DNA of 64,000 nt from Shigella phage vB_SdyM_006: the sequence record MK295204; one strand, given 5' to 3'. Both the position numbers and the translations under genes were made by a program. Under the pieces are notes generated by a model. The model was not told where the DNA came from. It did no database searches and saw nothing but the letters and a program-made list of their open reading frames with translations. Shown here in pieces: positions 5,665-52,525 of the stretch (positions are counted from its first letter, which is position 1; the number at the start of each line of letters is the position of its first letter).

Positions 5665-6099
5665 TCACCTCTCAATAATGTGTATTCTATCATCTAAAAT
5701 ATCATTAAGCATAGGACCAATGACATCCCAATTTAAGCCACCATTAGAACACCCTGGTTTAGGCAGGAGAACTCTTTTAAAATTGTTATTAGATACTATC
5801 TCCATTAATTCTAATGCACTCTTACGTATCAGGTCTTTATCAGACTTGTTATACCAATCATGTTTAGTAGGAAATGATATTAAATTAATGTTATTATATT
5901 TCGTAAGAATTCTGCATACATGGCCGTATTGGATTAAGGATTTAGCCATGATTAAGTCTAAATTAGGAACCTTCAACGAAAAGAGACGGGCAATTCCGGC
6001 TCCCATAACAGCTCTTTTATTTTTCTTGATATTCATGTTTGTTGTAATGCAAATAGCATCACAAGGGATATCAAGAATATTTCCAGATACTATTTTCAT
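5665..6099 (-). CDS. macro-domain protein (ADP-ribose binding/hydrolase fold)
   Basis: 144 aa; N-terminal SGNILDIPCDAICITTN, glycine loop VMGAGIA, C-terminal PKPGCSNGG fit minimal macro domain. Confidence 0.75.
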   Translation of the reverse strand: MKIVSGNILDIPCDAICITTNMNIKKNKRAVMGAGIARLFSLKVPNLDLIMAKSLIQYGHVCRILTKYNNINLISFPTKHDWYNKSDKDLIRKSALELMEIVSNNNFKRVLLPKPGCSNGGLNWDVIGPMLNDILDDRIHIIER

Positions 6100-6518: not shown

Positions 6519-6716
6519 TTATTTTACCTCAATAATAGTGAGTTCAGTATCTTCTGTCAAATCACAAAAGTCAAAAGCCAATGCAGCAATACCTGGGTAT
6601 TCTGATTCGTCAATAATACATTCAGTATTATTATTTTTGATGTCTAAGGCTAATTGATAATTAGACGTAGTAAATCCAAGTTCAAGTTCTTCGCACCATA
6701 CGGTATACTTTTTCAT
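6519..6716 (-). CDS. small protein, tandem paralog A (65 aa)
   Basis: Begins MKKYTVWCEE, ends TIIEVK; paralog of adjacent gene. Confidence 0.55.
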   Translation of the reverse strand: MKKYTVWCEELELGFTTSNYQLALDIKNNNTECIIDESEYPGIAALAFDFCDLTEDTELTIIEVK

Positions 6717-6911
6717 TTATTTTACCTCAATGAGTTCACAATCGTATAAACAACTACACAGTTCACAAAAAGAATAAGCCGATGCATATGAATCAGTGTC
6801 TATCCAAAACCCAAGATTATCAATAGCACCTTTACGAACTTCATAAGCAAGTTGATAATCAACTGTTTCAAATCCAATTTTCTTTTCTTCGCACCATACT
6901 ATATATTTCAT
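6717..6911 (-). CDS. small protein, tandem paralog B (64 aa)
   Basis: Begins MKYIVWCEE, ends ELIEVK; abuts paralog A. Confidence 0.55.
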   Translation of the reverse strand: MKYIVWCEEKKIGFETVDYQLAYEVRKGAIDNLGFWIDTDSYASAYSFCELCSCLYDCELIEVK

Positions 6912-7756
6912 GAGTATTCCTTGTCATAATAAGAATCTGGAGTAAAAATATTTAACATATTTGTAGAATTATCAATAGTAATAATATTTTCCTGTTCAAC
7001 TTCAGGTGTATAATATTTTAAAAACTCTTCTTTAACGTATTTTACTGGATCACTTTTATAATCGTCAGTAGAAATATCAAATAATTCAATTGTATACGTA
7101 TCAAGCCATTTTTCAGAACATGTTAATCGTCCACATAATAATCCATCATAAACGATAGCATATTCAATATGGCCCCATTTATATGAGCTATCAGCGTCGT
7201 GTCTGATTAGATAAAACTTAATATCAGAATTCTCACAATCATCACTAATATTGTCACGAACATCGTATTCATTGAGCTCGGTCAATTCACTTAAAGCATT
7301 AATAAACAGGTTTTTATATTGAGGGCCAGTTACTAACTTATCTTCTGTTAGTTCTTTCTCAATAAATTCTTTTAAAGTTAAAACTGGCAATTCATACTTA
7401 GGAAATAATGCAGTTTCAGTAATAGTGCCGATATTCAATTCGGCCAATTTCTTAATAACAGAATCTTCAGCTTTATCAGAATCAGTCCAAATATGAAGAA
7501 CTTTAAAATTATGATTATTCCAAATTTTTTGTGGGTCAACATCAATCACATCTTGGGTTTTAGACAAAAACATTAAAAGGTAATCAGAATCATTCCACCC
7601 TACTGGGTTTTCGTATTTTTGAATGACTAGATATTGGAAATCAGTCATTAATGCATTATATCTTTCTTTAGAAGCTAAAGAAGTAGAATCCATAGATGAA
7701 GAAAAAGCTTCAATAACACTAGCTGGGTTTTTAATTAACATTTTGAATAGTCCCAT
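6908..7756 (-). CDS. hypothetical protein (282 aa)
   Basis: ORF with ATG; ATGA overlap with downstream gene. Confidence 0.55.
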   Translation of the reverse strand: MGLFKMLIKNPASVIEAFSSSMDSTSLASKERYNALMTDFQYLVIQKYENPVGWNDSDYLLMFLSKTQDVIDVDPQKIWNNHNFKVLHIWTDSDKAEDSVIKKLAELNIGTITETALFPKYELPVLTLKEFIEKELTEDKLVTGPQYKNLFINALSELTELNEYDVRDNISDDCENSDIKFYLIRHDADSSYKWGHIEYAIVYDGLLCGRLTCSEKWLDTYTIELFDISTDDYKSDPVKYVKEEFLKYYTPEVEQENIITIDNSTNMLNIFTPDSYYDKEYS

Positions 7757-7977
7757 GTGATTTTAACACGATCATGATATATTACTCTATCATGGCTTTT
7801 TGAAACTGTAAATCCTTTTTCTTTAAGAATTTCAATCAACGCATCTTTAATGGCTTCATTTTCTGGAAGCTTTGCGTAATGCTCTGTACTATCATGCAAA
7901 GCCAGTTGGCAAATATCATTTAACACAATAGCTAAATTGTGTTCAACAACAGTATTTTTAAGATCAGATAAATTCAT
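7735..7977 (-). CDS. hypothetical protein (80 aa), first gene of leftward accessory operon
   Basis: ORF with ATG; candidate GTTTAC promoter upstream. Confidence 0.5.
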   Translation of the reverse strand: MNLSDLKNTVVEHNLAIVLNDICQLALHDSTEHYAKLPENEAIKDALIEILKEKGFTVSKSHDRVIYHDRVKITWDYSKC

Positions 7978-8010
7978 ATTATTCTCACAGTTGCGAATTG
8001 ATGATGTGTA

Positions 8011-8039
8011 TACTATATTATAAAATAGTGTTTGTAAAC
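8011..8039 (-). promoter_or_regulatory. candidate early promoter for leftward accessory operon
   Basis: Minus strand GTTTAC, 16 nt spacer, TATAGT. Confidence 0.35.
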
Positions 8040-8062
8040 ATCTAAAATAATTTAAAATAAAT

Positions 8063-8091
8063 GTTTACTTTTGCTGTCATTATGATATTAT
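8063..8091 (+). promoter_or_regulatory. T4-type early promoter, copy 1 of repeated promoter/5'UTR cassette
   Basis: GTTTAC (8063-8068), 17 nt, TATTAT (8086-8091); followed by conserved leader ending GGAGTATATTATG. Confidence 0.6.
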
Positions 8092-8133
8092 ATACATATT
8101 GAAACGAAACATGAAAAACAAATGGAGTATATT

Positions 8134-8478
8134 ATGAATAAGACACAAATCAATGCAGTTTTAAAAACTTTAGGTTATGGTAATTTACGTTATTCTAATG
8201 GTAAAACATACCGCAGAGGAAACTCTATGGTTAAAGGTTTTCATTTAATTTCTACTGGTGCATGTATGGTGACTTCACCAGAAACACAAAAATTTAGTGA
8301 TCTTGTTAATGAGTTAAAACAACATTTTGAATTACAATCATATTATGACAATTGCATGGCAATATTTGTGACAGGAAAATTAAAAATTGTTGTTTGTTTA
8401 ACAAATTTTAATACATACGGTGGCTTAAACCCAGATTATAAAACATGGTTTGCATCTGTTAATATTGAAAAGTTATAA
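8134..8478 (+). CDS. hypothetical protein (114 aa), rightward moron-like gene
   Basis: ATG at 8134 preceded by GGAG; opposite orientation to neighbours; own promoter and terminator. Confidence 0.55.
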   Translation: MNKTQINAVLKTLGYGNLRYSNGKTYRRGNSMVKGFHLISTGACMVTSPETQKFSDLVNELKQHFELQSYYDNCMAIFVTGKLKIVVCLTNFNTYGGLNPDYKTWFASVNIEKL

Positions 8479-8481
8479 AAC

Positions 8482-8509
8482 AAAAATGGGACCGTAAGGT
8501 CCCATTTTC
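8482..8509. terminator. bidirectional intrinsic terminator
   Basis: AAAAA, stem ATGGGACC, loop GTAA, stem GGTCCCAT, TTTT; between 8134..8478 (+) and gp54 (-). Confidence 0.6.
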
Positions 8510-9422
8510 AAATTAATCTTGTTACAGCTCCTATTCCTCCTCCAGCACCACCTAATCTTGTTAAATTTCTTAATGAAGAGCTTAAAGAGTTTTCTTCTGA
8601 AATTGTATCTATGGCACCAATTGCTTTTGATTCTAACCAATCAAGAGCTGCTTGCCTACCGACAGAACCTACCTGCATCACCCTGTATGCGAATGTAACA
8701 TCAAAAACAGCAATAGTATTATTATCTTCATATGAAAGTTCAGGAGCACCTACCGACATAGGAACACACCCTGTGAACATGGCAACAGTATGTGGAAGAC
8801 CGTTTCTATTGTGTAAATTAACCTGGATATCGGCTTCAACATCTATAGGTAAAGCACGTAGTCCTGTGATTGGGTCTTCAACTGAATTCACCCAATCTTG
8901 CATAGCTCGATAATTACTTGCTTCTGAATCCATCCTAAACGAAATTATCAACGGGTCATATTCTCTAGATAGAACTTTTATATTAGGTGAATTATGATTT
9001 TTATCCATCTCATAAGATAGTCTGTTTTCTGGTAATTTGACAGAATAAACCATTAACCCAGATGTTGGAAATGCCATATTAAAGAAATCTAATAGATAAG
9101 TCCCTACTTCAAATTCTCCTAATAATGATTGAACCACACGATTAGACATGGCTCCTAAAAGATATTTAGAAACACCAGATTTTCTCACTAGTTTTTGAGT
9201 ACCAGCAACAACTAGACTTGATACTGCACTAGTTACATCATTTTGAGATATTCCAAGAAAATCTGTATCTATAGGTAAATTGTTAAACAAAAAACCACCA
9301 AAATTATCTAAAAGCTCATTAGTTTTTGATGATGGGGCTGTGGCAAAAACAACACTAAACATGTTTGTTCTTTGGAAGTCAAGATTGACAGCTTGGCTTT
9401 TAAATTCTTCTAATGTATACAT
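8508..9422 (-). CDS. 54: baseplate tail-tube initiator gp54-like
   Basis: 304 aa; position and size fit T4 gene order 29-48-54. Confidence 0.65.
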   Translation of the reverse strand: MYTLEEFKSQAVNLDFQRTNMFSVVFATAPSSKTNELLDNFGGFLFNNLPIDTDFLGISQNDVTSAVSSLVVAGTQKLVRKSGVSKYLLGAMSNRVVQSLLGEFEVGTYLLDFFNMAFPTSGLMVYSVKLPENRLSYEMDKNHNSPNIKVLSREYDPLIISFRMDSEASNYRAMQDWVNSVEDPITGLRALPIDVEADIQVNLHNRNGLPHTVAMFTGCVPMSVGAPELSYEDNNTIAVFDVTFAYRVMQVGSVGRQAALDWLESKAIGAIDTISEENSLSSSLRNLTRLGGAGGGIGAVTRLI

Positions 9423-10465
9423 TATAACAATCCTTCTGCAAACAAAGTTCCACGATTTAGTGTTAAAATCTCTCTAAACGTTATTTCAAGAGTAAACGTA
9501 CTTGGTAAATTTGGGGCCATGGCTAGACCATTAAAATGTCCATTAGGAGATTTGTCAAATCTTATACTAGAAATCTGGGCTGGTCCAAATATATCAGTTC
9601 GGCCATCATAAGAAGATGTTTTACCAAAATTTCGTATAACCCATATTGTTGGGTTACTTACAACAAGAACATTAGTTAAAAAACTTGTAATATTTTCCAA
9701 TATTGTTCCTGAAGTATCAGCACCGTCTGGGGTATTAGGATTTATTAATGTTGTTTTATACCATTCATCAATAGCGGCTTTAATTTCTTTAGCAAATTTA
9801 GACACACCTGTTTCACCATAAGAGAAATAACTAAATATTTCGTAAATATACAAAATTTGTATAAGGTCTTGTGGAGTCCTTGGTGTTAAATGCCAGGTAA
9901 AAACTTTAGTTCTATTATCCGCTCCAGCATACATAGATCTAGCTGTAGTATAAATTTGTTCGCCTTTATCAGCCATAATTCCTTGTGTAATCGAATCTAA
10001 TGCACCAAAAACAGCCGTTGACGCAACATTACTCAAAGCACCTGTTACGCTACCACCACCTTTAGTTAATAAAGAATCTCCAACATCATTAAATCTATGA
10101 GAAATGTTATCTACGTCAGATTGACTTCTTGGCATTAATATATTAGCAACAGATTCTTGACTAAAGGTGGTTGTCCCACCTTTTTTAGAAAAATCAATAT
10201 TAATTGCGTCAACGGCATTTTGTTTTTTTCTAAAGTCTCTTAATGAGCCTGTATCGCGTGCATTATAATTATATGCAGTAAATAACAGCCCGTTTTTATA
10301 TAAGTCATTAAGTCTAAAATCTAAAGCATTATCTGTACCAGAGGCTCGTTCTGCTGGAAACTGAGCCACTAATGTTTTGGTTTGAGTATTTGTTGGATTA
10401 GAAGACCCAGCAGATATTTTTGTTCCTATTTTCTCTACTTCTTCATCCAGAACTTTTATTTTCAT
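9422..10465 (-). CDS. 48: baseplate tail-tube cap gp48-like
   Basis: 347 aa; synteny between gp29 and gp54. Confidence 0.65.
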   Translation of the reverse strand: MKIKVLDEEVEKIGTKISAGSSNPTNTQTKTLVAQFPAERASGTDNALDFRLNDLYKNGLLFTAYNYNARDTGSLRDFRKKQNAVDAINIDFSKKGGTTTFSQESVANILMPRSQSDVDNISHRFNDVGDSLLTKGGGSVTGALSNVASTAVFGALDSITQGIMADKGEQIYTTARSMYAGADNRTKVFTWHLTPRTPQDLIQILYIYEIFSYFSYGETGVSKFAKEIKAAIDEWYKTTLINPNTPDGADTSGTILENITSFLTNVLVVSNPTIWVIRNFGKTSSYDGRTDIFGPAQISSIRFDKSPNGHFNGLAMAPNLPSTFTLEITFREILTLNRGTLFAEGLL

Positions 10466-12186
10466 TAATTAACCTCTAAAGCTTTATACATGCCAGGAGC
10501 AGCATATCCTGTTACAGGATTTTGTTGAATAACAGTCTTATTATTAGCTACATTGTTTTGGACATTAGCTGTATTTGTGGTCGTTTGAGATGATGTTTCT
10601 GTTGTTTCTATATTATTGATATTTTCTGCACTTGTGTAAGCTTGAGATTCTTTAGGATCTTCAGGTTTAATAGATGGGATCTGCTCTAATAACAAATCTG
10701 ATCTATCTAATGCATCTATTCCTAATTTATAATAATCCGAATCGACTTCAACATCTTGGTTATCAACAATAGAACTTGCAAGTTCTCTTAATTCGCCAGC
10801 TATTTTAGTTAAAGCCTCTGGGTTATTTCTATGAGCTTCAGATAAGGCCATTAATTGATTTAATCTAGCTTCAGTTTTTACTTGTTCTTCTATATCGCCC
10901 ATTTCTGGTGCAGATTCATCTTGCTTTTTAGCTAAAGCAATAGCCCTATCAGCATCTTCTCTACTTATAACATTATTTTTTACATAAGTGTTTGCAGCTT
11001 CTTCTATAGACCCACCTGTAAATCTTGCTCTAGCTTTTATCATTGATAAATAGCCTTCATCATCACTTTTGGCGGTATTTCTAATGTCGTTACCACGAAC
11101 TTTAGCCATTAACTTAAGTTCATCTTCGTTAGGCATATAACCTGTATTTTTATTATATGCTTCTATAGTTGCAACTTCTAATTCGTCAGCCCAGTCGTCC
11201 TGCCCTATAGCTCGTAATAATGAAGATAACATTTTTCCTAATGCGTACTGTAAGCCTTGTAAAAGATTTTCTAAAACGTTTACCATACCTTTTACAATGG
11301 CTAATGCTAAATTACCAAAATCGCCTTCTTTCCAGAATTTTTTGACATCTTCTAGTGTAGCAAATATAGAACGCAATATCGGGGCTAGTGGTCCAAGTTT
11401 TTCTTCAAAATCGTCAAAGGCTTCATTAAATAATTTACCCCAATATTTAAAATGAATCATTATAAGGTCCATAGCTAATACTATAGCCAACATTATTGCT
11501 GCCCATTTGGCAGCAAACAACGCCGCTGTTACAGTGTATTTAAACAACATATCAGCTATTCTGTTTGTCATCCCATAAGCAGATTTGAACCCAGTTTTAA
11601 CATTTTTATTTAAAGAATTTAAAACTTTAGATAAAGAGTCTTTTTCTTTATTGTCATCTTTAGGTTCTTTCTTTTTCTTCTCTTCTTCTGGGACCGGTGC
11701 TCTATCGACGTCATCTCTTCTAATAACAAGGTCTTTAATAGCAGATTCTAGTTTATTATCTTCAACCGGAACAGGGAGTTTAGAAAAAGCTTCTTCGGTC
11801 TCAGAAACTTCTGGTTCTACAATTTCCTGTTTTTCTGGTTTAAATTTTTCTTTTAACATATTACTTAATTTAGATATGTTCGAAGAAAAAGAATTTGATA
11901 ATTTAGAATTACTTGTTGCTAAGTCTTTTAAGTTATTATTTGTTTCTTGACTAGAATCTATTAATAACTCAACACCAGCTTGAACATCTTCTACAGAAGA
12001 AACAACTTTAGAAGTCCCAGATTCTACGGTTTCTGCAACTAGCTCAATACCATTTGATAAGTCATCTAAAGAATCAGAAACATTAAGCATAGAGTTAGCA
12101 ACATTTTCTTGGCCTTTAGATTCTTTAGATATTTTATTTTTTTCTTCTATTACTTTATTTCTTCTAAACGAATCAGGTGTTTTCAT
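10465..12186 (-). CDS. 29: baseplate hub / tail length determinator gp29-like
   Basis: 573 aa (T4 gp29 about 590 aa); synteny. Confidence 0.65.
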   Translation of the reverse strand: MKTPDSFRRNKVIEEKNKISKESKGQENVANSMLNVSDSLDDLSNGIELVAETVESGTSKVVSSVEDVQAGVELLIDSSQETNNNLKDLATSNSKLSNSFSSNISKLSNMLKEKFKPEKQEIVEPEVSETEEAFSKLPVPVEDNKLESAIKDLVIRRDDVDRAPVPEEEKKKKEPKDDNKEKDSLSKVLNSLNKNVKTGFKSAYGMTNRIADMLFKYTVTAALFAAKWAAIMLAIVLAMDLIMIHFKYWGKLFNEAFDDFEEKLGPLAPILRSIFATLEDVKKFWKEGDFGNLALAIVKGMVNVLENLLQGLQYALGKMLSSLLRAIGQDDWADELEVATIEAYNKNTGYMPNEDELKLMAKVRGNDIRNTAKSDDEGYLSMIKARARFTGGSIEEAANTYVKNNVISREDADRAIALAKKQDESAPEMGDIEEQVKTEARLNQLMALSEAHRNNPEALTKIAGELRELASSIVDNQDVEVDSDYYKLGIDALDRSDLLLEQIPSIKPEDPKESQAYTSAENINNIETTETSSQTTTNTANVQNNVANNKTVIQQNPVTGYAAPGMYKALEVN

Positions 12187-15180: not shown

Positions 15181-15559
15181 AATGAATGTTTTATATTCTG
15201 ACTTAGACCCTAAAATGGAAAAAGGCTGGGATAAAGACCTGCATAAAGTCGTAGGAGATAGGGCTGTCAAAAATTCTATTCTAGGAATAATTAGTACTAG
15301 GAAAGGGTCTAGACCCTTTGACCCAGAATTTGGGTGTAATATAACAGACCAATTATTCGAAAATATGAGTCCATTAATAGAAGACACTATAGAGCGATCT
15401 ATAGTTTCGGCTATTAAAAATTATGAGCCAAGAGTACAAAGATTAAAAGTTTCTGTTACTGCATTGTATGATTCAAATTCTATAGTTGTAGATATTATTT
15501 TTTCTATTGTAGATAATCCAGACACATTAGAACAGATAAAAGTTCAATTATCAAAATAG
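15173..15559 (+). CDS. 25: baseplate wedge protein gp25
   Basis: 128 aa; motif TRKGSRPFDPEFGC and overall co-linearity with T4 gp25. Confidence 0.9.
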   Translation: MSKMNVLYSDLDPKMEKGWDKDLHKVVGDRAVKNSILGIISTRKGSRPFDPEFGCNITDQLFENMSPLIEDTIERSIVSAIKNYEPRVQRLKVSVTALYDSNSIVVDIIFSIVDNPDTLEQIKVQLSK

Positions 15560-15760
15560 TTTACTATAGTTATTAATTTATTACTTAATAGTTATATATA
15601 ATATATAAAGAACTTAATAAAATAATAAAAATTCTGGAGCTGCGCTCCAGATTTCTTTAGAAATAGTAACATATAGTTATTAATTTATTACTTAATAGTT
15701 ATATAGAATATACTATACTTTTAATAAATTAATTTACTAGAGTTACTATTAATAGGCTAT
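15560..15760. repeat. AT-rich intergenic repeat region, copy 1
   Basis: Two copies of ATAGTTATTAATTTATTACTTAATAGTTATATA (from 15566 and 15673); about 85 bp near-identical to 52358..52441. Confidence 0.8.
15634..15650 (+). terminator. hairpin inside repeat region
   Basis: Stem CTGGAGC, loop TGC, stem GCTCCAG, then ATTTCTTT. Confidence 0.5.
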
Positions 15761-20281: not shown

Positions 20282-22345
20282 TTAAATAATAAATTTTTCT
20301 GGGACAAAAGTAAGATCAACAGCTGTTGATAATAATTCTAGCCCTTTTTGACTAATTTTACCAGTATTTTCTTTTAAGAATTCTTTAAACCCAATTTTTT
20401 CGATTTTTCCTTCAGATAAAAACTTATTTCCGTCAATAAGTTCGCTTTCATCTAGTAATTCTGGATCCACTACAGATGTTTCTACTAATATTGGTCTATT
20501 AAATTCTATATCACGAGCGTTTTCATAACCGTGGATAGAATGAATCTTAAGAGCTAAACCTCTAGGTAAAATCACCTCGCATTCACTAGAGTATTTTGAC
20601 ATATTACCAGGAATAATAACATTGACTTTATGTGCACCTTTAATAGTTATACCCATAGAAATGTTAATATCTGTTTTCTTAGTTGCTTTCTTACCATTAA
20701 CGGCTACACCAATATTTTTTGGTGTCATAACTGTTGATATAACATCATCGAATGTTTCGGATTCAAAAGTTACTGTAGTCGCGTTAGGTTTAATATTATC
20801 AAGAACATCATTTCGTTCCCCAAAAATAATTGGAGCTAATGAAGTCGAAATATAATTAGGAAAATATAATGTTTTATTTTTAGCAGCTTTTTCTACGTCG
20901 GCATAAGGTAATTTTTGTGCTCTATATAAAATAGTTCCTTTTTCTAACTTGGTTCCTTTTTTGAAGGCCCCATCTAAGACAGGAATTTTGTTTTCATACA
21001 CAGATTTTAAACTTTTATCTTTACCAAGCAAAAAGTCGTTCATTTCTTCATATCCACGTAAAGCATAATCTGTGATAACTTTTCGCTCTTCTTCTGTTAA
21101 ATCCATTTCTGTTTCGGTTCTAAATAACTCTTCTAAAGGAGTATAGAAAACATTTCTGTTTAAAGCAGAGATACAGCCTCTTAAAGCTCTAGTCTTAGCC
21201 ACATTATCGTCAGGTCCATATGTTTCTAAATCTTCGGCTATTTTTTTGTAAACATCCATAGCATTATTAGAAGTTTTGAGCGCATTGTTAATTATCAATA
21301 TATACGGTTTTGCTAATTTATATTTTTCTTCACTAGATAAATGATAAAAATTTTCAACACCATACCCAGATATGCGTTCTAAAGAATCTAATAAAAATCT
21401 AGCTTCTAGATCTGATTCTTCTTCACTCACGGCCGAATTTATTTTATCTAAAAACACAGATTTAGATTCATCAATTTTATTAAGGACATTTTTATGAACT
21501 AATGCAATTTTTGTAGAATCACTTTGGACAATAGGAGGATTATCTTGTAGTTCAATATATTTTCTTCTTCCTTCTTCAGAATAATTTTCTAAGTCTTCTG
21601 GTTTAGAAACACCATACATTGCTGATAATAATTCACGTCTAGAAACTTTAGTTTTTGAAATGACAGATCGTTCACTTCTTGTGTTTTCTTGTGCTGCAAT
21701 ACTTCCTGCAATGGCTTCTAATTTAGACACTTGCTTGCCAGTTTTGTCATTGATATACACATCACCTACTTTAGAATCGACTTTAGTATATAAGTCAGAA
21801 TCAATACCAGGAATCCCAGCGATGTCTTCTAAAGGTCTGTTTTTACGATATATTAAAACATAAGCATGTTTACCTGTAAATTGATACAAATCTTCTAAGA
21901 CAACAAATTTACCACCAGTACGTTGCATAGCCAGACGTTTGATTATTCTTTGTAATGTCTTTTCTTGGCCTTTCATTTTTTTAGCAGGGAATCTAAATAA
22001 AACTGCGTCCATTTTAAGTTTTTTAACTTGTTCGTATACAGTGTCAAAAATAGTATTCAATGCCCCAATAGGGTCTGAGCCTAAACCATTTCTTAATTCT
22101 GCTGCATTACCATTTTTAGACAAACTCATCAAAAACACTTGAACAAATTTATCACCTTGCTTTACTGCTTTTAATGCATCGCCTTTAGATAAATAAGACA
22201 CCATTCTAACTAAAAGATTGTCATTTCCAGGAACACTGACATTCCATAATTGAGGGACCTTAGCCCTTTTATTAAGATTAATAGCTTTATATTGAGCTAT
22301 TTCTGAATCAAAAACCTCATTTAAATTAATTTCATTTAATTCCAT
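20282..22345 (-). CDS. alt: ADP-ribosyltransferase Alt
   Basis: 687 aa (T4 Alt 682 aa); R-S-E type motifs YRAQ, YISTS, ECEVILPRG; late promoter upstream. Confidence 0.85.
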   Translation of the reverse strand: MELNEINLNEVFDSEIAQYKAINLNKRAKVPQLWNVSVPGNDNLLVRMVSYLSKGDALKAVKQGDKFVQVFLMSLSKNGNAAELRNGLGSDPIGALNTIFDTVYEQVKKLKMDAVLFRFPAKKMKGQEKTLQRIIKRLAMQRTGGKFVVLEDLYQFTGKHAYVLIYRKNRPLEDIAGIPGIDSDLYTKVDSKVGDVYINDKTGKQVSKLEAIAGSIAAQENTRSERSVISKTKVSRRELLSAMYGVSKPEDLENYSEEGRRKYIELQDNPPIVQSDSTKIALVHKNVLNKIDESKSVFLDKINSAVSEEESDLEARFLLDSLERISGYGVENFYHLSSEEKYKLAKPYILIINNALKTSNNAMDVYKKIAEDLETYGPDDNVAKTRALRGCISALNRNVFYTPLEELFRTETEMDLTEEERKVITDYALRGYEEMNDFLLGKDKSLKSVYENKIPVLDGAFKKGTKLEKGTILYRAQKLPYADVEKAAKNKTLYFPNYISTSLAPIIFGERNDVLDNIKPNATTVTFESETFDDVISTVMTPKNIGVAVNGKKATKKTDINISMGITIKGAHKVNVIIPGNMSKYSSECEVILPRGLALKIHSIHGYENARDIEFNRPILVETSVVDPELLDESELIDGNKFLSEGKIEKIGFKEFLKENTGKISQKGLELLSTAVDLTFVPEKFII

Positions 22346-22375
22346 TTTATCACCTTTATAATAAGAATATATTAC

Positions 22376-22383
22376 TATTTATA
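22376..22383 (-). promoter_or_regulatory. late promoter TATAAATA for alt
   Basis: Exact TATAAATA on minus strand about 30 nt before alt ATG. Confidence 0.55.
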
Positions 22384-22387
22384 CCAA

Positions 22388-22410
22388 AAAGGAGACCGAA
22401 GTCTCCTTGT
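22388..22410 (-). terminator. intrinsic terminator (UUCG tetraloop family)
   Basis: Minus strand AAGGAGAC-TTCG-GTCTCCTT then T-run; same hairpin at 27314..27336, near-copy at 26969..26992. Confidence 0.6.
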
Positions 22411-22425
22411 TTTTATATTATTTAT

Positions 22426-22635
22426 TTATTCACCAATTTCTTCTAAGAAATTCTCATAATCAGTTGGGAATCTTTTCCAAAACTTTTTAATTTTTTGTTC
22501 TTTATTCTTGCATTCTGCCAATGAAATCATTAAACCGTTATCAGAATCAGATTCAACTCGTGTTAATGTTAAACCTAATTCAGAAAGTGCTGTTAAGTGA
22601 TTTTGTGCCAATACATATAAATATAAATCAAACAT
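22426..22635 (-). CDS. hypothetical protein (69 aa)
   Basis: Track ORF starts at TTG; ATG at 22635 preceded by GGAGTATATT leader of cassette copy 2. Confidence 0.5.
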   Translation of the reverse strand: MFDLYLYVLAQNHLTALSELGLTLTRVESDSDNGLMISLAECKNKEQKIKKFWKRFPTDYENFLEEIGE

Positions 22636-22675
22636 AATATACTCCGTTGTTTCCGTGTGTTGTTTCAATATGTAT

Positions 22676-22704
22676 ATAATAACATGTCTACAGCAAAAGT
22701 AAAC
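22676..22704 (-). promoter_or_regulatory. T4-type early promoter, cassette copy 2
   Basis: Minus strand GTTTAC, 17 nt, TATTAT; leader near-identical to copies at 8063 and 22989. Confidence 0.6.
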
Positions 22705-22723
22705 ATGTTATTGTGGCTTTTTA

Positions 22724-22960
22724 TTAAATAATTCTAGCTATCAATGCAGAAGTATTAATACTAACAGTAAATTCCATTGGCGTTTCATCTTCTTCAGAAC
22801 TAATTACCATTGAATGGATTTCGGTAACACCAGATACGGATAAAACTCTATCTTCAATAATAGTTATATGTGAAGAATATTCAAAAGGACCATATGGGTC
22901 TCCATCTAATCTAGATGTATCTTTAAGCATTTTTAACAATTCAGCACTTGATAATTTCAT
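22724..22960 (-). CDS. hypothetical protein (78 aa)
   Basis: Track ORF extends through promoter; ATG at 22960 preceded by GGAGTATATA. Confidence 0.5.
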   Translation of the reverse strand: MKLSSAELLKMLKDTSRLDGDPYGPFEYSSHITIIEDRVLSVSGVTEIHSMVISSEEDETPMEFTVSINTSALIARII

Positions 22961-22988
22961 TATATACTCCATTTTCGTATGTTGTTTC

Positions 22989-23017
22989 AATATGTATATA
23001 ATAACATGTCTACAGCA
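22989..23017 (-). promoter_or_regulatory. T4-type early promoter, cassette copy 3
   Basis: Minus strand GTTTAC, 17 nt, TATTAT, directly after terminator hairpin. Confidence 0.6.
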
Positions 23018-23022
23018 AAAGT

Positions 23023-23038
23023 AAACAAAAAAGAGCCT
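23023..23038 (-). terminator. intrinsic terminator fused to early promoter
   Basis: Minus strand stem AGAGCC, loop GAAA, stem GGCTCT, TTTTTT, then GTTTAC. Confidence 0.55.
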
Positions 23039-23045
23039 TTCGGCT

Positions 23046-23249
23046 CTAAATAATTTTTGATAAATCATCTTGTATTGCTAAGATTTTATGAAAATCTGAT
23101 TCTCTTATAGGACAAGACTTATCTAACTTAAATGATATTAAAGAATTCATAAAGATAGATTCTATTTGTTCTTCTAAATCATCTATTAAAATATTCTTCT
23201 GGTGATTGTCCAAAGATTTCATAAAAGTCATTTGCCTCTTGTTTATCAA
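23046..23249 (-). CDS. hypothetical small protein, start uncertain
   Basis: ORF overlaps ligase 3' end by 71 nt as drawn; true start may be an internal ATG. Confidence 0.3.
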   Translation of the reverse strand: MINKRQMTFMKSLDNHQKNILIDDLEEQIESIFMNSLISFKLDKSCPIRESDFHKILAIQDDLSKII

Positions 23250-24651
23250 GACGTCTCATTTTAACACGTGGTAAAAATAAACTATATGTTTCTCGTCCAT
23301 CAACTTTTTGAGCTGCATTACATACACCCGAGATAATCATACCGACAAGTTTACCTTTCTTATGAAGATCCCATAATAAACGACGGTCTAATTCATGACG
23401 TTTATCGAGTGGAATCCAGATTTTTTCTTTTGAACCTTTTACCTTTTCGTAATCTTTATCCTTAAAACCAGAACCACAGTCAACTAAAATAGTCCCATCT
23501 CTAGACCTTAAATTGACACCACCTAATTTTTCAGGGTCTTTAGAATGTGGATACGCACCAATAATTTCTAAATCAAAATCTTTTTCTTCTTTAAATTTTA
23601 CTTGGTCACAAGTACGTCCATCAGACCAAACACCAAGTTTATTTTTTAGAATAATACCTTCTAACTTCATATCAACATATTTTCTGTAAATAACTTGGGC
23701 TTCTTCTAAAGTCTTAACTTCTTCTGATGGAATTAATTCTAAACGTCCTGCTTTTTTAGTAATTAATTCTAAATTTTTTAACCTTTCTTTGTAAGGTTTA
23801 TTAATTTCTGAATTATCAGTCTGTGTACCTTGTGTAACTTCATAGTTAATTAGATCCCAGACCTGGAATTTAACACAATCTGCTTCGGTTTTTGAAATGG
23901 TTCCTTGGATTGATTTATTTGCAATACCGTTACCTTCTTCTCTAGAAGCAACAATATTTTCTTCTTCGTCTTCATCAAAGAATAAATCTAGACCTTGTTT
24001 TGTTGATTTAGGAAAATAAACTAGTTCACCATCAAGAACAACGTTTCCTAATCCTTCAGTGATAGATACAATTTCTTCTTTTAGCAAATCTAGACCAAGA
24101 TATTCGCTACCAGAACGAGAATATAAATTAACTTCCCCGTCTACAACTTCGGCAAAACATCTAGCACCATCTGCTTTAAGCTGAGCTAATGCTGGGAATT
24201 TAATTTTAGATACATTAGCTTTACTAAAAGGCGCTGCTAAAAACTGCGGCTGCTTTGGTAATAAATTTTCCCATACTTTGTTTGGAATACTTCTTCCTAC
24301 ACCACATTCCAAGTCACGTTTGACAATGCGTTTAATTAATGCTGCATCTTTAGGGCATAAACTTTCTAATACATCTTTTAAAGCAGCAATTGCAGCATGT
24401 CCTGTTAAAACCCGTTCACCTAAAACATTTTCTAAAAAATCTAAAGCGTCACGAAGTGTTTTAGATTCGGTTTTAGGTTCATATTCTGGAATCTTTTTAA
24501 TATGGAATTTGACTCTTTGAGAATATGTTAATCTAAACACATCTTTTACTAATAAATTGTTTTTATATTTTAAAAGAATATTTTCTTTTTCTTTTAATGA
24601 ATCCGTAGAAGCTAGTTCTACAATAATATCGTATACCATACCTTTTTCCAT
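23179..24651 (-). CDS. 30: ATP-dependent DNA ligase gp30
   Basis: Active-site KADGAR (KxDG) and long co-linearity with T4 DNA ligase; start may be second ATG (24639). Confidence 0.9.
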   Translation of the reverse strand: MEKGMVYDIIVELASTDSLKEKENILLKYKNNLLVKDVFRLTYSQRVKFHIKKIPEYEPKTESKTLRDALDFLENVLGERVLTGHAAIAALKDVLESLCPKDAALIKRIVKRDLECGVGRSIPNKVWENLLPKQPQFLAAPFSKANVSKIKFPALAQLKADGARCFAEVVDGEVNLYSRSGSEYLGLDLLKEEIVSITEGLGNVVLDGELVYFPKSTKQGLDLFFDEDEEENIVASREEGNGIANKSIQGTISKTEADCVKFQVWDLINYEVTQGTQTDNSEINKPYKERLKNLELITKKAGRLELIPSEEVKTLEEAQVIYRKYVDMKLEGIILKNKLGVWSDGRTCDQVKFKEEKDFDLEIIGAYPHSKDPEKLGGVNLRSRDGTILVDCGSGFKDKDYEKVKGSKEKIWIPLDKRHELDRRLLWDLHKKGKLVGMIISGVCNAAQKVDGRETYSLFLPRVKMRRLDKQEANDFYEIFGQSPEEYFNR

Positions 24652-47591: not shown

Positions 47592-50500
47592 ATGACTTTA
47601 AATAAATCACTTAAAGCAACGTACGGACTTGATGCCTCTAATGAAAAAGTTATAAATGTCGGATTAGCTGACAAAAATACTTTAACAGATGGCGTTAATG
47701 TCGAATTTTTAATTCAAGAAAACACAATCCAAGCATACGACAAAAATCGTGGATATGAAAAAGGCTTTGCTGTTATATTTGAAAATAGAATTTATGTTTC
47801 AAATCAAAAAATAGAATCTCCAGCTGGAGATTTTGAGCCTCATAAATGGTTTTCTTTACGTGTAGACCCTAAATGGGACACGGTATTTGAAACCGTAGCA
47901 TCAGGTCAAATTATAACATCAGGACAGTTTATTGCAGCTAATACGTCAATAAACGATTTATATTTTAAATTGCCTAGAAAACCACAACCAGGTGATACAA
48001 TTTGTATCAAAGAGGTCTCTGGTAATTCAGGCTATAAGTTCCTTAAAATAGGTAAAACCGATAATAATATTTTATGGAACGGAACTAATGTTGAAGAATT
48101 ATATCTAACACGTCCGTATTCGCAAACTTATTTTATATTTTCTGGGAACGTTTGGAATGTATTTCAAATAGAGCACGAAGATATTGGTAGAATAATATCT
48201 ACTTCACCATTAAAGCAACAAGTTTCTTCTGGAGAGAGATTATATAGATTATCCAATACTGGTCCTATCAATATCATGTTACCTAAATATGCTATGCATG
48301 GTGATGTTATTGAGATGTTTGATATTGATGGATTAACTTCAATAAATCACTTAACTCTTTACACGTCTGAAGGGTCTGGGCATGCTATAGGAACTTTAGG
48401 ACAATCTAAATTAGAAATAAGAACTATTGGTAACGGGCGATTAGTATTTGATAGTTCTAATAATCTATGGAGATTATGGGACGGCGATATAAGAACTCGT
48501 TTAAAAACTATCAAAGAAGATCGTAAACTATTACCTAATGAACAGGTTCTTGTCTATGGGATGAATAATACAGTTAAAGAAACCGTCACTCTAACGTTAC
48601 CTAGAAATATTGCTGTCGGTGACACAGTTGAGATTTCTTTAGGTTATATGAGAAAAGGCCAGACAGTTATCATAAAGACTGAGGGCGATGATATTATTGG
48701 GACTGATAAAACATTATTACAATTCCCTAAACGATCTCAGTATCCGCCTGAAATGACCTGGGTTGAAGTAAAAGAACTTGTGTTTAATGGTACTGATGAT
48801 TATTTACCTTATTTAAAATTTGCGTATGTAGAAACATTATCTGATTTAGGGTGGGCAGTTCAACATTATCGTCCTAATGTTGAGCGTGTAGATTTTAAAA
48901 ATCCAGAAAGAATCGGATTGATAGCATTAGCTACTCAAGATCAAGCAAACAAAGATCATGAAAACAACCCAGAAAAAGAATTGGCTGTAACACCATTTAC
49001 TTTGGCAAATAGAGTTGCTACAGAAGAACGACGTGGTATTGCTAAAACAGCAAAAACTTCTATGGTCAATCAAAACTCAAATGGAAAATTTGAAGATGAC
49101 ACAATTGTCACACCTAAAAAATTAAACGAACGAACAGCTACAGAAGAACGACGTGGCCTAGCCGAAATTGCTACTCAAGAAGAAACAAATACAGGTAAAG
49201 ATGATACGACTATTGTTTCTCCATTAAAACTCGAGAACAGGAAAGCCTCAGAAACTTTATCTGGTATTGCTAAAATAGTCCCATCTAAAGGAACGCCAGG
49301 AACACAGCGTGATAAACAAGGAACTGGTGTTTATAATTACACGGATAATAAGACTATTGTTTCTCCTTCAGCTATACATGAGCTTTTAAGTACAGAAAAT
49401 TCTCATGGTGTTGTTTATTTAGCTTCTGAAACTGAAGTTATTGAAGCACCAGATATGGACCCTAAATTTCCTGTTGCTGTAACTCCGGTTCAATTACATA
49501 AGAAAACTGCTACAGAAGATAGAATAGGTTTCTCTCAAATCGCTACACAAGAAGAAACTGATGAAGGAACTGATAATTTTAAATTTATAACACCTAAAAA
49601 ATTAAATGATCGAAGATCAACAGAAACTTTAGAAGGTATCTCAAGATACGCTACTTATGAAGAGTTTAAAAAAGGTGATTCAAATTTAATATCCGAGCCT
49701 AATAAAATAAAACAGTTTTTACAAGAAGCAAGAATAAAAGTTGTTCCTGAATCTGGAATAGTTTTTACTGGTAATATTTGGGACACATGTAATTTTGATA
49801 TCAAACCTTCAACTGAAGTTGATAGAGGGACATTAAAATTATCAACTCAAGGCCAAGCTAATACTGGTGAAGATGATACAACAGCAATTACACCTAAAAA
49901 ATTACATAATAAAAAATCAACTGAATTGGTTGAAGGTATAATCCAACTTTCTAATTACGCTGAAACAATAGCAGGTGATGTTAATAATAAAGCAATATCT
50001 CCTCAGAATTTTGTTTTAGCTGTTCAAACAGAAAATAATGGATTAGAAGCCTCTACTTCTTTACGTGGATTTGTTAGACTGTTAGATGGTGCTAGTATTT
50101 GGCAAGGAACAGATGAATCTGGTAGTGACCCGGATAATGAAGACTTTTTGCATAATGGATATGCAGTATCTCCACGAGAATTAAATAAAGCTTTAAGTCA
50201 TTATCTTCCTATCAAAGGAAAAGCAGTTAACTCTACTTTATTTGATGACTTAAAAACTTCTGATTTTATTAGAAGAAACATAGACCAAGAAATTGATGGG
50301 GATATGACTTTTAATAACCCAGTTATTCTTAAAGATACATTAGTTTCTACAAGTTCTGGTAAATTTGAATCACTAGAAAGTAAAACGGTTTCTGTCGGTG
50401 ACGGTACTAAAGGTTCAATAAACTTTTTGTCTGCTACACCATGGAAAATTGATGTACAAGATGATTTCAAAATTAACAATGTAAAAATTGATAAAGATGA

Positions 50501-51248: not shown

Positions 51249-52359
51249 TATAATGGTTGAATTCGGCCAAGATTATGTAGGTGCTCAAACGTTTGCAGAG
51301 AACAATGCACTTACATATAAGTTAACTATTAAGGCTAGTAATAAAAACACACAGGGTGAATCCTGTGTGTTAATTAACGATAATCAAATAACAACTGAAT
51401 GCGATACTGGTATTAATGTTTGGGTCATTAATAATATAGGTAAACTTGATAATACTATGTGTTTTGATGTATCAACAGAATCTGGTATAACAGCATTTAT
51501 AACATTTTTGAAAGAACAAACTTCTGGAATAATTTGTTTAGCTTCATCTAACGAATTAGATTCAACTCAAGTCTTAGCTGATTATATGAAATCTATAGGT
51601 TCTGCTTCATGGAATAATTTTATGATTTCTAAAATCAAAACAGTGTCTTATGCAGCAGTCTATCGTCCAGAATTAAAATCCATTGTTCTGGAATCTATAC
51701 AATATTCTGATGGAATTAAAGAAGATGAATTACTTGAGTTAGAAACCATTTTTGATTCTAATAATTCTATAGGAATAACAGGATTTCCTGGTTCAATCGT
51801 ATATGATTATAAAGAATACACGTCAATTGAACAAGATTATAAAAAATGGCCTACTAATCTTTTAAATAACAAGCTTTCTGATTATGGTCTTAAACCTGGC
51901 GATTGGGTTTCTTTGAGTGCTTCTATATTTGGAGATAAAGAATTAAAAGATGACGGTGGATGGACTAGAATAGATTGTAGATGGGTATTTGGTAATGCAT
52001 GGAAACAATCATTTTATTTAGAAAGTACATTGAAAGGGAATTATCCTGTTCAGTCTATGGTTAATCCTGGTATCTGGGAATCTAAAACAGTTTATTCTCA
52101 AATACCAGAAGGTGTAGATGGATTTGTTATAATAGCTTCAAGATATAATTCAGACTTAGGCCATTCTGCTGTAAAAAATGTTGCATTCGGAAGAGCTGCA
52201 GAACCTATAATAGAAAAATCTGATAGACAAATAGGTATAAATGGTATTAGAAATTCTTTTGTAAAAGAGGAAGAACAAAAAGTAGGATCGTTATTAAGTT
52301 TGTTAAATCTTAAAGACAAATCCGACACAGTTTCTTCTATAAACTTTAAAGAAATATAG
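51241..52359 (+). CDS. 35: long tail fibre hinge protein gp35
   Basis: 372 aa (T4 gp35 372 aa); follows gp34. Confidence 0.7.
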   Translation: MSNIMVEFGQDYVGAQTFAENNALTYKLTIKASNKNTQGESCVLINDNQITTECDTGINVWVINNIGKLDNTMCFDVSTESGITAFITFLKEQTSGIICLASSNELDSTQVLADYMKSIGSASWNNFMISKIKTVSYAAVYRPELKSIVLESIQYSDGIKEDELLELETIFDSNNSIGITGFPGSIVYDYKEYTSIEQDYKKWPTNLLNNKLSDYGLKPGDWVSLSASIFGDKELKDDGGWTRIDCRWVFGNAWKQSFYLESTLKGNYPVQSMVNPGIWESKTVYSQIPEGVDGFVIIASRYNSDLGHSAVKNVAFGRAAEPIIEKSDRQIGINGIRNSFVKEEEQKVGSLLSLLNLKDKSDTVSSINFKEI

Positions 52360-52525
52360 TAACATATAGTTATTAATTTATTACTTAATAGTTATATAGA
52401 ATATACTAGACTTTTAATAAATTAATTTACTAGAGTTACTAATTTATTACTTAATAGTTATATATAATATAAAGAACTTAATAAAAATAATAAATTCTGG
52501 GAGCTTTGCTCCCAGTTTTCTTTAG
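52358..52525. repeat. AT-rich intergenic repeat region, copy 2 (rearranged)
   Basis: 52358..52441 near-identical to 15663..15748; 52441..52515 similar to 15574..15650, including hairpin. Confidence 0.8.
52497..52515 (+). terminator. hairpin inside repeat, compensatory variant of 15634..15650
   Basis: Stem CTGGGAGC, loop TTT, stem GCTCCCAG, then TTTTCTTT. Confidence 0.5.

Follow-up and report, generated by a model that had tools for sequence, protein, structure and literature searches.

The repeated element and its open reading frames

The stretch of DNA analysed here (the window, 64,000 nucleotides (nt)) is from Shigella phage vB_SdyM_006, sequence record MK295204. Megablast searches place its nearest relatives among the T4-like Proteus phages (Straboviridae, genus Bragavirus). 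The window carries exactly three copies of an approximately 70-nt cassette consisting of an early promoter, a leader and a Shine-Dalgarno (SD) sequence, one on the plus strand (copy 1) and two on the minus strand (copies 2 and 3). Each is followed by a small open reading frame (ORF), termed ORF-A, ORF-B and ORF-C, respectively (Table 1). A first-pass annotation, made from the nucleotide sequence alone, had reported the three copies on these strands, and all are found where it placed them. Its range for copy 3 (22960..23038) has the correct site but not the correct boundary: it cuts into a hairpin, and the promoter proper starts at 23026.

The order of parts is the same in every copy: GTTTAC, 17 nt with TGn at the end, TATTAT, a leader that is rich in A and unstructured, GGAG, 6 nt and ATG. 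The aligned copies read GTTTAC-TTTTGCTGT-(8 nt)-TATTAT-ATACATATTGAAAC-(17-22 nt, A-rich)-GGAGTATAT(T/A)ATG. GTTTAC-N17-TATTAT with TGn, a consensus match that predicts a sigma70-like early promoter, is present in all three, as is the 3′ end GGAG + 6 nt + ATG. A generic sigma70 scan also recovers all three, in the form TTTACT-16-TATTAT with TG before the -10. Upstream of the -35, copy 1 has the AT-rich tract AAAATAATTTAAAATAAAT, copy 2 has a weaker AT-rich tract, AATAAAAAGCCACAATAACAT, and copy 3 has the T run of a terminator.

The leaders predicted from the A of ATTGAAAC fold more weakly than their own shuffles (z = +0.7 to +1.2). An Rfam search gave best scores well under the thresholds (24.8 vs 50.2 bits; 26.8 vs 55), and zero matches at 22300-23300. 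The GGAG of the cassette could be a RegB cleavage target as in T4; a tblastn search of the window with T4 RegB gave no match.

ORF-A is flanked on one side by minus-strand early genes and on the other by the minus-strand baseplate gene 54, whose product (gp54) is the baseplate tail tube initiator. The minus-strand order at the other two copies is DNA ligase, a 58-amino acid (aa) ORF, a hairpin, copy 3, ORF-C, copy 2, ORF-B, a second hairpin, TATAAATA and alt. BLASTP finds no similarity among the three ORFs, and they belong to three different PHROG families, which bears out their earlier description as unrelated; ORF-B and ORF-C give no BLASTP alignment even at E <= 100. None of the three has a Pfam domain.

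As the first-pass annotation had it, a terminator hairpin is joined to the third copy, and it abuts the -35 hexamer. A hairpin beside the promoter is a property of copy 3 only; for copies 1 and 2, 55 nt of upstream sequence fold at just -4.2 and -4.0 kcal/mol. The hairpin at 8481-8510 is probably a bidirectional terminator and the 3′ boundary of the ORF-A module.

Table 1. Positions of the cassette copies, ORFs and associated elements in the window
Feature	Position	Strand	Details
Cassette copy 1	8063..8136	+	-35 GTTTAC 8063-8068; 17-nt spacer with TGn; -10 TATTAT 8086-8091
Copy 1, 3′ part		+	From sequence and alignment: predicted +1 A 8098 (from spacing); SD GGAG 8124-8127; ATG 8134-8136
Cassette copy 2	22633..22704	-	-35 22704-22699; -10 22681-22676; predicted +1 22669; GGAG 22645-22642; ATG 22635-22633
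Cassette copy 3	22958..23026	-	-35 23026-23021; -10 23003-22998; predicted +1 22991; GGAG 22970-22967; ATG 22960-22958
ORF-A, 114 aa	8134..8478	+	Behind copy 1; PHROG 13016, function unknown; sole plus-strand gene among minus-strand genes
ORF-B, 69 aa	22426..22635	-	Behind copy 2; PHROG 25836, function unknown
ORF-C, 78 aa	22724..22960	-	Behind copy 3; PHROG 22000, function unknown
Terminator hairpin AGAGCC-GAAA-GGCTCT + T6	23027..23047 (stem-loop 23047-23032)	-	Adjoins copy 3 -35; z = -3.8
Hairpin between convergent ORF-A and gp54	8481..8510	.	Terminator scan; -17.3 kcal/mol, z = -5.7
Terminator hairpin closing the ORF-C/ORF-B early unit	22389..22408	-	Fold z = -3.6
Early-type promoter, divergent, GTTTAC-N18-TAGTAT	8010..8039	-	For gene 7977-7735; consensus match only
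TATAAATA, T4 late-promoter motif	22376..22383	-	Putative function; after hairpin, before alt (22345-20282)
Second family: hairpin, T run, GGTTTTATTGAAAATAA, GTTTAC	27342-27289, 44511-44458, 58970-58917	-	Repeat finder, D2
Second family, hairpin alone	22413-22360, 26998-26945, 59925-59872	-	Repeat finder, D2

Identity among the three copies

The core 20-mer TATTATATACATATTGAAAC occurs three times in the window, where 0.05 occurrences are expected, and none of 100 shuffles reached three. Exact matches to GTTTACTTTTGCTGT are confined to the three cassette sites. The repeat finder lists copies 2 and 3 as a direct repeat of 56 nt (D5; 96% identical, 322 nt apart) and copy 1 with copies 2 and 3 as inverted repeats of 56-57 nt (I1 and I2; 84%); the SD-ATG block appears as a separate 33-nt match at 79% (I5).

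The cassettes were compared with the other early-type promoters of the window, using a set of 15 GTTTAC-N16-18-TAnnnT sites, most of them followed by an SD and a start codon. Across 44 nt (-35 to +8), identities among the three copies are 38, 38 and 44, whereas the remaining 102 pairs have a mean of 21.3/44 (standard deviation 3.6, maximum 30). Copies 2 and 3 do not differ at all over 47 nt, including the spacer AGACATGT. The 12 other promoters do not converge on the cassette sequence. In addition, the cassette spacer is 17 nt long and that of the majority of T4 and window early promoters is 18 nt. Chance or a generic promoter consensus as the source of the repeat is rejected on the 20-mer count and on these identities. 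The likeness thus extends beyond generic hexamers, which the first-pass annotation had proposed to check by alignment.

Comparison with Bragavirus relatives

Phage phiP4-3 is 98.4% identical to the window over positions 7000-12000 and 98.0% over 21500-24500, and SJ_PmiM is 99.6% identical over the latter region. Identity to Pm5461 and PM2 is about 83%, with gaps (all by megablast). The whole phiP4-3 genome has three cassette copies. A scan of IMG/VR with a degenerate 43-nt pattern matched the isolates Pm5461, phiE142 and phiP4-3 only and was uninformative. Measured against the window, SJ_PmiM has a mosaic composition: the ligase-alt region is 99.6% identical and the baseplate genes about 83%. 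Megablast gives no similarity for the sequence upstream of copy 1, and the detectable match starts at the -35 hexamer.

All three ORF families are present in Pm5461, PM2 and PSTCR6, with promoters of the same family that are less alike. The earlier suggestion that the cassettes had brought in these genes therefore does not hold for any recent event.

ORF-A has homologues at the same position (Pm5461_171, SJ_129 and a PM2 homologue; 46%-47% aa identity), behind a promoter that reads GTTTACATATGCTTTCAACATGATATTATAGACATATCAAAAC...GGAGTATATAATG. Compared with Pm5461, SJ_PmiM and PM2, nt identity is 59% in ORF-A, 80% in the cassette core, 90%-100% in the 3′ hairpin and 81%-83% in gp54.

The ORF-C homologue, Pm5461_189, is likewise at the same position (44% aa and 57% nt identity); in this region the T-run-GTTTACTTTTGC is conserved, as is the leader of alt. 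It is preceded by a hairpin with another stem, GGGAC-TTTT-GTCCC, and then by the promoter GTTTACTTTTGCTTTTAAGTTTGATACTAT. The hairpin ahead of ORF-C in Pm5461 and PM2 has retained its structure with a changed sequence.

ORF-B is upstream of alt in the window, whereas its family is downstream of alt in the relatives. Distant homologues (35%-38% aa identity) with GTTTAC early promoters of their own are found there in Pm5461, PM2 and PSTCR6. One example is Pm5461_187 (35% aa identity), which comes right after the alt stop codon, behind GTTTACTTTTGCTTCTAATATGATATTAT; in Pm5461 and PM2 the promoter of the ORF-B homologue starts with GTTTACTTTTGCT. Copy 2 and ORF-B together form a block of about 300 nt, and Pm5461 and PM2 have nothing at that site. 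In the Providencia phage PSTCR6, alt is followed downstream by four promoter-ORF units in tandem, two with a preceding hairpin, and because of this the alt flanks are considered a hyperplastic region. The number of ORFs in these flanks differs between phages.

From this comparison, ORF bodies appear to be replaced or displaced between conserved regulatory flanks, as the promoter-early stem-loop (PeSL) model predicts.

A promoter type shared across genera

A blastn search with the 70 nt of copy 3 gives full-length matches, at 76%-83% identity, in about 135 phages of Escherichia, Shigella, Pectobacterium and Yersinia, at one to three places per genome. The 44-nt core has 82%-86% identity in the Escherichia coli phages. 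The matches are upstream of nrdC.10 (RB69, PhAPEC2 and WG01), upstream of motA (ATK47 and others), and upstream of variable small ORFs, which lie close to goF or, as with PP01_037, between 61.4 and sp. The shared core, GTTTACTTTTGCTTTAAACATGTTATTATAGACCTATCAAAAC, has 36-38 of 44 positions in common with copies 2 and 3, which is as close as copy 1 comes to them. The cassette is therefore a member of a promoter type that crosses genera. The search of T4-like genomes proposed by the first-pass annotation thus has a divided outcome: ORFs are replaced and displaced as it expected, but much of the likeness from the -35 to +8 is that of this wider promoter type.

The general early consensus of T4 was rejected as the source: within the first 50 kb of T4, identity to the cross-genus core is at most 28/44. 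T4 promoters also have mostly 18-nt spacers and another leader, which further disfavours such an origin.

In T4, nrdC.10, motA and imm.1 have a different long promoter-leader in common, AAAATTTTTTCACAAAACnGTTTACAA...TGGTACTATACAACTATCAACTACTGATACGGA, which is identical before the three genes and stands behind a terminator hairpin in two of them. In Mosigvirus, nrdC.10 and motA also share a promoter-leader, and it is different from that of T4. The cassette type before these two genes is thus T4-like in T4 and of the other type in RB69-like phages, i.e. it is lineage-specific. PP01, a close relative of T4, has two promoter-ORF units between 61.4 and sp that are extra relative to T4. The inserted PP01_037 is behind a promoter-leader of the RB69 type and not of the T4 type. 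PP01 and the gene-by-gene differences in cassette type favour exchange, with homogenization within a genome, over selection for a single optimum, as far as such sequence comparisons can suggest it.

Possible homogenization of the window copies

The promoters of ORF-A and ORF-B in Pm5461 are identical at 32/44 positions, as against 38-44/44 among the three of the window. Neither the Pm5461-type copy 1 nor the cross-genus type has four of the states shared by the window copies: the G in TGCTGT, the T in ATACAT, the TG in ATTGAAAC and the GGAGTATAT block, which all three copies contain. The SJ_PmiM promoters are mosaic: copies 2 and 3 are of the window type and copy 1 is of the PM2 type.

The near-identity of the three promoters appears to be special to the lineage of the window, along with the position of ORF-B upstream of alt. 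It may reflect gene conversion, or replacement of promoters by each other's copies, in a comparison of few genomes.

Relation to known systems

PeSLs are conserved intergenic elements of ~100 bp found in hyperplastic regions (PMC2839356, PMC4122927). Each combines a sigma70-like early promoter with an AT-rich tract and a stem-loop and also contains an SD and an ATG, and the ORFs alongside differ between relatives (PMC2839356, PMC4122927). In RB49 and phi1, promoter and terminator activity and the formation of mini-circles have been found experimentally (Arbiol et al. 2010, PMC2839356). PeSLs are also known from T4/PST and KVP40/nt-1 (Comeau et al. 2014, PMC4122927), and the T4/PST consensus is TTTACW-N17-TAYWAT (PMC4122927).

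The window cassette, TTTACT...N17...TATTAT, fits this consensus. Like a PeSL, it is a repeated intergenic composite of AT-rich tract, early promoter (by consensus), SD and ATG, with a stem-loop terminator in one copy, and it adjoins small ORFs without an assigned function, whose replacement, insertion or displacement distinguishes close relatives. The PeSL match drawn by the first-pass annotation is sound for the promoter, the AT tract, the SD/ATG and the turnover of ORFs; it fails for the stem-loop on copies 1 and 2. A further difference is that conservation covers the core promoter and leader (-36 to ATG) and not the stem-loop and the sequence upstream of it. Bragavirus, whose hosts are Proteus, is a genus without an earlier description of PeSLs. 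The cassette is best classed as a PeSL-class early promoter-leader new to this genus, with putative mobility and transcription.

T4-type early promoters have a GTTTAC -35 and an extended consensus (Nolan et al. 2006, PMC1524935). The cassettes resemble them in the GTTTAC -35, the TAnnAT -10, the GT-rich stretch before -12 and the AT-rich upstream sequence; T4 early promoters, like the cassettes, can precede small novel ORFs, and they also precede conserved early genes. The cassettes differ in their mutual identity (38-44/44, against a mean of 21 among other window promoters) and in the 17-nt spacer. The RB69-type promoter-leader (Mosigvirus and Dhakavirus; PP01_037 in Tequatrovirus) has the GTTTACTTTTGCTTTAAACATGTTATTATAGACCTATCAAAAC core, the A-rich leader and the GGAG SD in common with the cassette, but other downstream genes and an SD-ATG block that reads GGAGAATAAAATG against GGAGTATATWATG. 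The ORF-A unit is also comparable to a lambdoid moron: it is a self-contained promoter, gene and terminator transcribed against its flanking genes. The regulatory sequences of lambdoid morons are unrepeated and are not thought to mediate movement (PMC2839356), whereas the promoter of the window cassette is a repeated, conserved element.

Proposed process and alternative explanations

The explanation preferred here is that a single T4-type immediate-early cassette is present in three copies, and that these act as conserved linkers for the recombination of ORFs, according to the PeSL model (probability about 0.7). The sigma70 RNA polymerase of the host would recognise GTTTAC, the 17-nt spacer and the extended -10 TGnTATTAT, and transcription would start about 7 nt downstream of the -10, at the A of ATTGAAAC. 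A leader of 31-36 nt, A-rich and unstructured, would then present the GGAG SD 6 nt before the ATG. Each copy would thus turn a small accessory gene into an autonomous early transcription-translation unit. The hairpins at 23047-23032, 22408-22389 and 8481-8510 would insulate the units from neighbouring transcription, that of the late gene alt included. Cassettes and hairpins together may form linkers between which the homologous recombination of the phage replaces, inserts or moves ORFs, and recombination or gene conversion between copies would result in the near-identity found in the lineage of the window, phiP4-3 and SJ_PmiM.

Several points weigh against this explanation. Promoter use, start sites and termination are predictions from consensus and spacing, and recombination is a proposed cause of the pattern observed. 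Hits of the generic sigma70 scan are no commoner in this AT-rich DNA than in shuffles, and the scan alone proves nothing. Copy 1 is identical to copies 2 and 3 at 38/44 positions, and the nrdC.10 promoter of RB69 likewise has 38/44. The order ORF-C, then ORF-B differs from that expected if a simple circle of cassette plus ORF-B had integrated into copy 3. In comparison with PeSLs, there are three copies per genome in the window phage and phiP4-3 vs dozens in RB49, and one of the three window copies has a stem-loop. Within the genus, all three pairings of promoter and ORF are of long standing, and vertical descent with selection on a strong promoter could explain much of the similarity without mobility.

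This last point leads to an explanation without mobility or recombination, in which strong early promoters are independently held near one optimum by selection and are inherited vertically with their genes. It would account for the 44-nt type preceding genes in other genera that are not orthologues (36-40/44; nrdC.10 of RB69 and WG01, motA of ATK47, PP01_037), for same-family promoters already present on the three ORF families in Pm5461, PM2 and PSTCR6, and for copy 1 fitting copies 2 and 3 no better than the RB69 promoter does. Selection alone, however, does not readily explain why copies 2 and 3, in front of dissimilar ORFs, are identical over 47 nt that include spacer positions without known function, or why the twelve other GTTTAC promoters of the window have not approached the same sequence. 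The variants TGCTGT, ATACATATTGAAAC and GGAGTATAT are in all three window copies and not in the Pm5461-type promoters of the same genes, and the site of the ORF-B family relative to alt varies between phages. Selection as the sole cause is thus considered rather unlikely. The cross-genus matches have also been read in a wider sense: Bragavirus, Mosigvirus, Dhakavirus and Tequatrovirus may exchange the 44-70-nt promoter-leader horizontally, as an expression module that travels with accessory ORFs, e.g. PP01_037, and is homogenized in each genome by gene conversion. This is put forward tentatively, as a possibility with the odds against it.

Two further proposals concern parts of the data. The TGCT(G/T)TA in the spacer might be a MotA box, of a middle or a dual early-middle promoter, or the leader might be a cis-regulatory RNA. 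TTTTGCTGTA resembles the MotA-box consensus of T4, (a/t)(a/t)(a/t)TGCTTtA (PMC1524935), and copies of the RB69 type have a perfect TGCTTTA. However, the TGCTGTA box ends 7 nt before TATTAT, where 11-13 nt are required, and there is no TAnnnT at that distance; a MotA middle promoter is rejected on this spacing. A structured leader or known RNA family is rejected on the folding and Rfam results: the leaders are unstructured, and no Rfam family reaches its threshold. Either role is thus very unlikely. Copies 2 and 3 might instead be a tandem-duplicated promoter-gene unit, with ORF-B and ORF-C as paralogues that have diverged beyond recognition; the units are adjacent, in direct orientation, 322 nt apart, and their promoters are 96% identical. 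But the rates of change would be incompatible, with near-identical promoters before dissimilar ORFs of different PHROG families, and ORF-B and ORF-C have separate homologues at different loci in Pm5461 and PM2. Paralogy by tandem duplication is rejected on the BLASTP and PHROG results and is regarded as highly improbable.

Neighbouring elements and other repeats

The late-promoter motif TATAAATA upstream of alt was identified from the T4 late-promoter consensus as quoted in PMC1524935; it is also kept in Pm5461.

A second regulatory family, distinct from the cassette, consists of the terminator hairpin AAGGAGNC-nnnn-GNCTCCTT, a T run, GGTTTTATTGAAAATAANT and GTTTAC (Table 1), and so joins a stem-loop to an early promoter. 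It is a better match than the cassette to the stem-loop half of the PeSL.

The longest repeat in the window is a very AT-rich intergenic sequence of 86 nt, at 15663-15748 and 52356-52441 on the plus strand (99% identity). Each copy adjoins a degenerate copy that ends with a hairpin and a T run, CTGGAGCTGCGCTCCAG and CTGGGAGCTTTGCTCCCAG (regions 15556-15748 and 52356-52507). Positions 49017-49925 on the plus strand display in-phase direct repeats (D3 and D4) of 31-41 nt, with 66%-84% identity and spacings of 108-480 nt, which suggests a coding region with internal repeats.

Two other minus-strand loci were noted. A 144-aa ORF at 5665-6099 has a borderline match to the Macro domain (21.5 bits vs a cut-off of 22). 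The ORFs at 6519-6716 and 6717-6911, of 65 and 64 aa, are tandem paralogues with 43% aa identity (E = 2e-12) and are detected as DNA repeat D6.

Implications for phage gene turnover

The PeSL concept has been published before, and the gain here is incremental. If the explanation preferred above holds, the Bragavirus phages of Proteus use the strategy of RB49/phi1, T4/PST and KVP40/nt-1, and their conserved early promoter and terminator elements would provide ready-made signals for expression and at the same time be landing pads at which small accessory genes recombine. ORF-A, ORF-B and ORF-C would then be high-turnover immediate-early genes and therefore likely candidates for functions in host takeover or anti-defence. 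The elements would also predict the sites of new genes in phages that are candidates for therapy.

A promoter type that crosses genera, together with promoter sets that are homogeneous within a lineage, would make a concrete case for the concerted evolution of phage promoters. If the wider reading as an exchanged module is true, it would explain both the differences in cassette type at nrdC.10 and motA and the presence of one identical type on three unrelated Bragavirus genes. The module would be a transferable “adaptor” that evolves in concert and sets the sites of gene entry in T4-like genomes, possibly with the help of a dedicated recombination activity.

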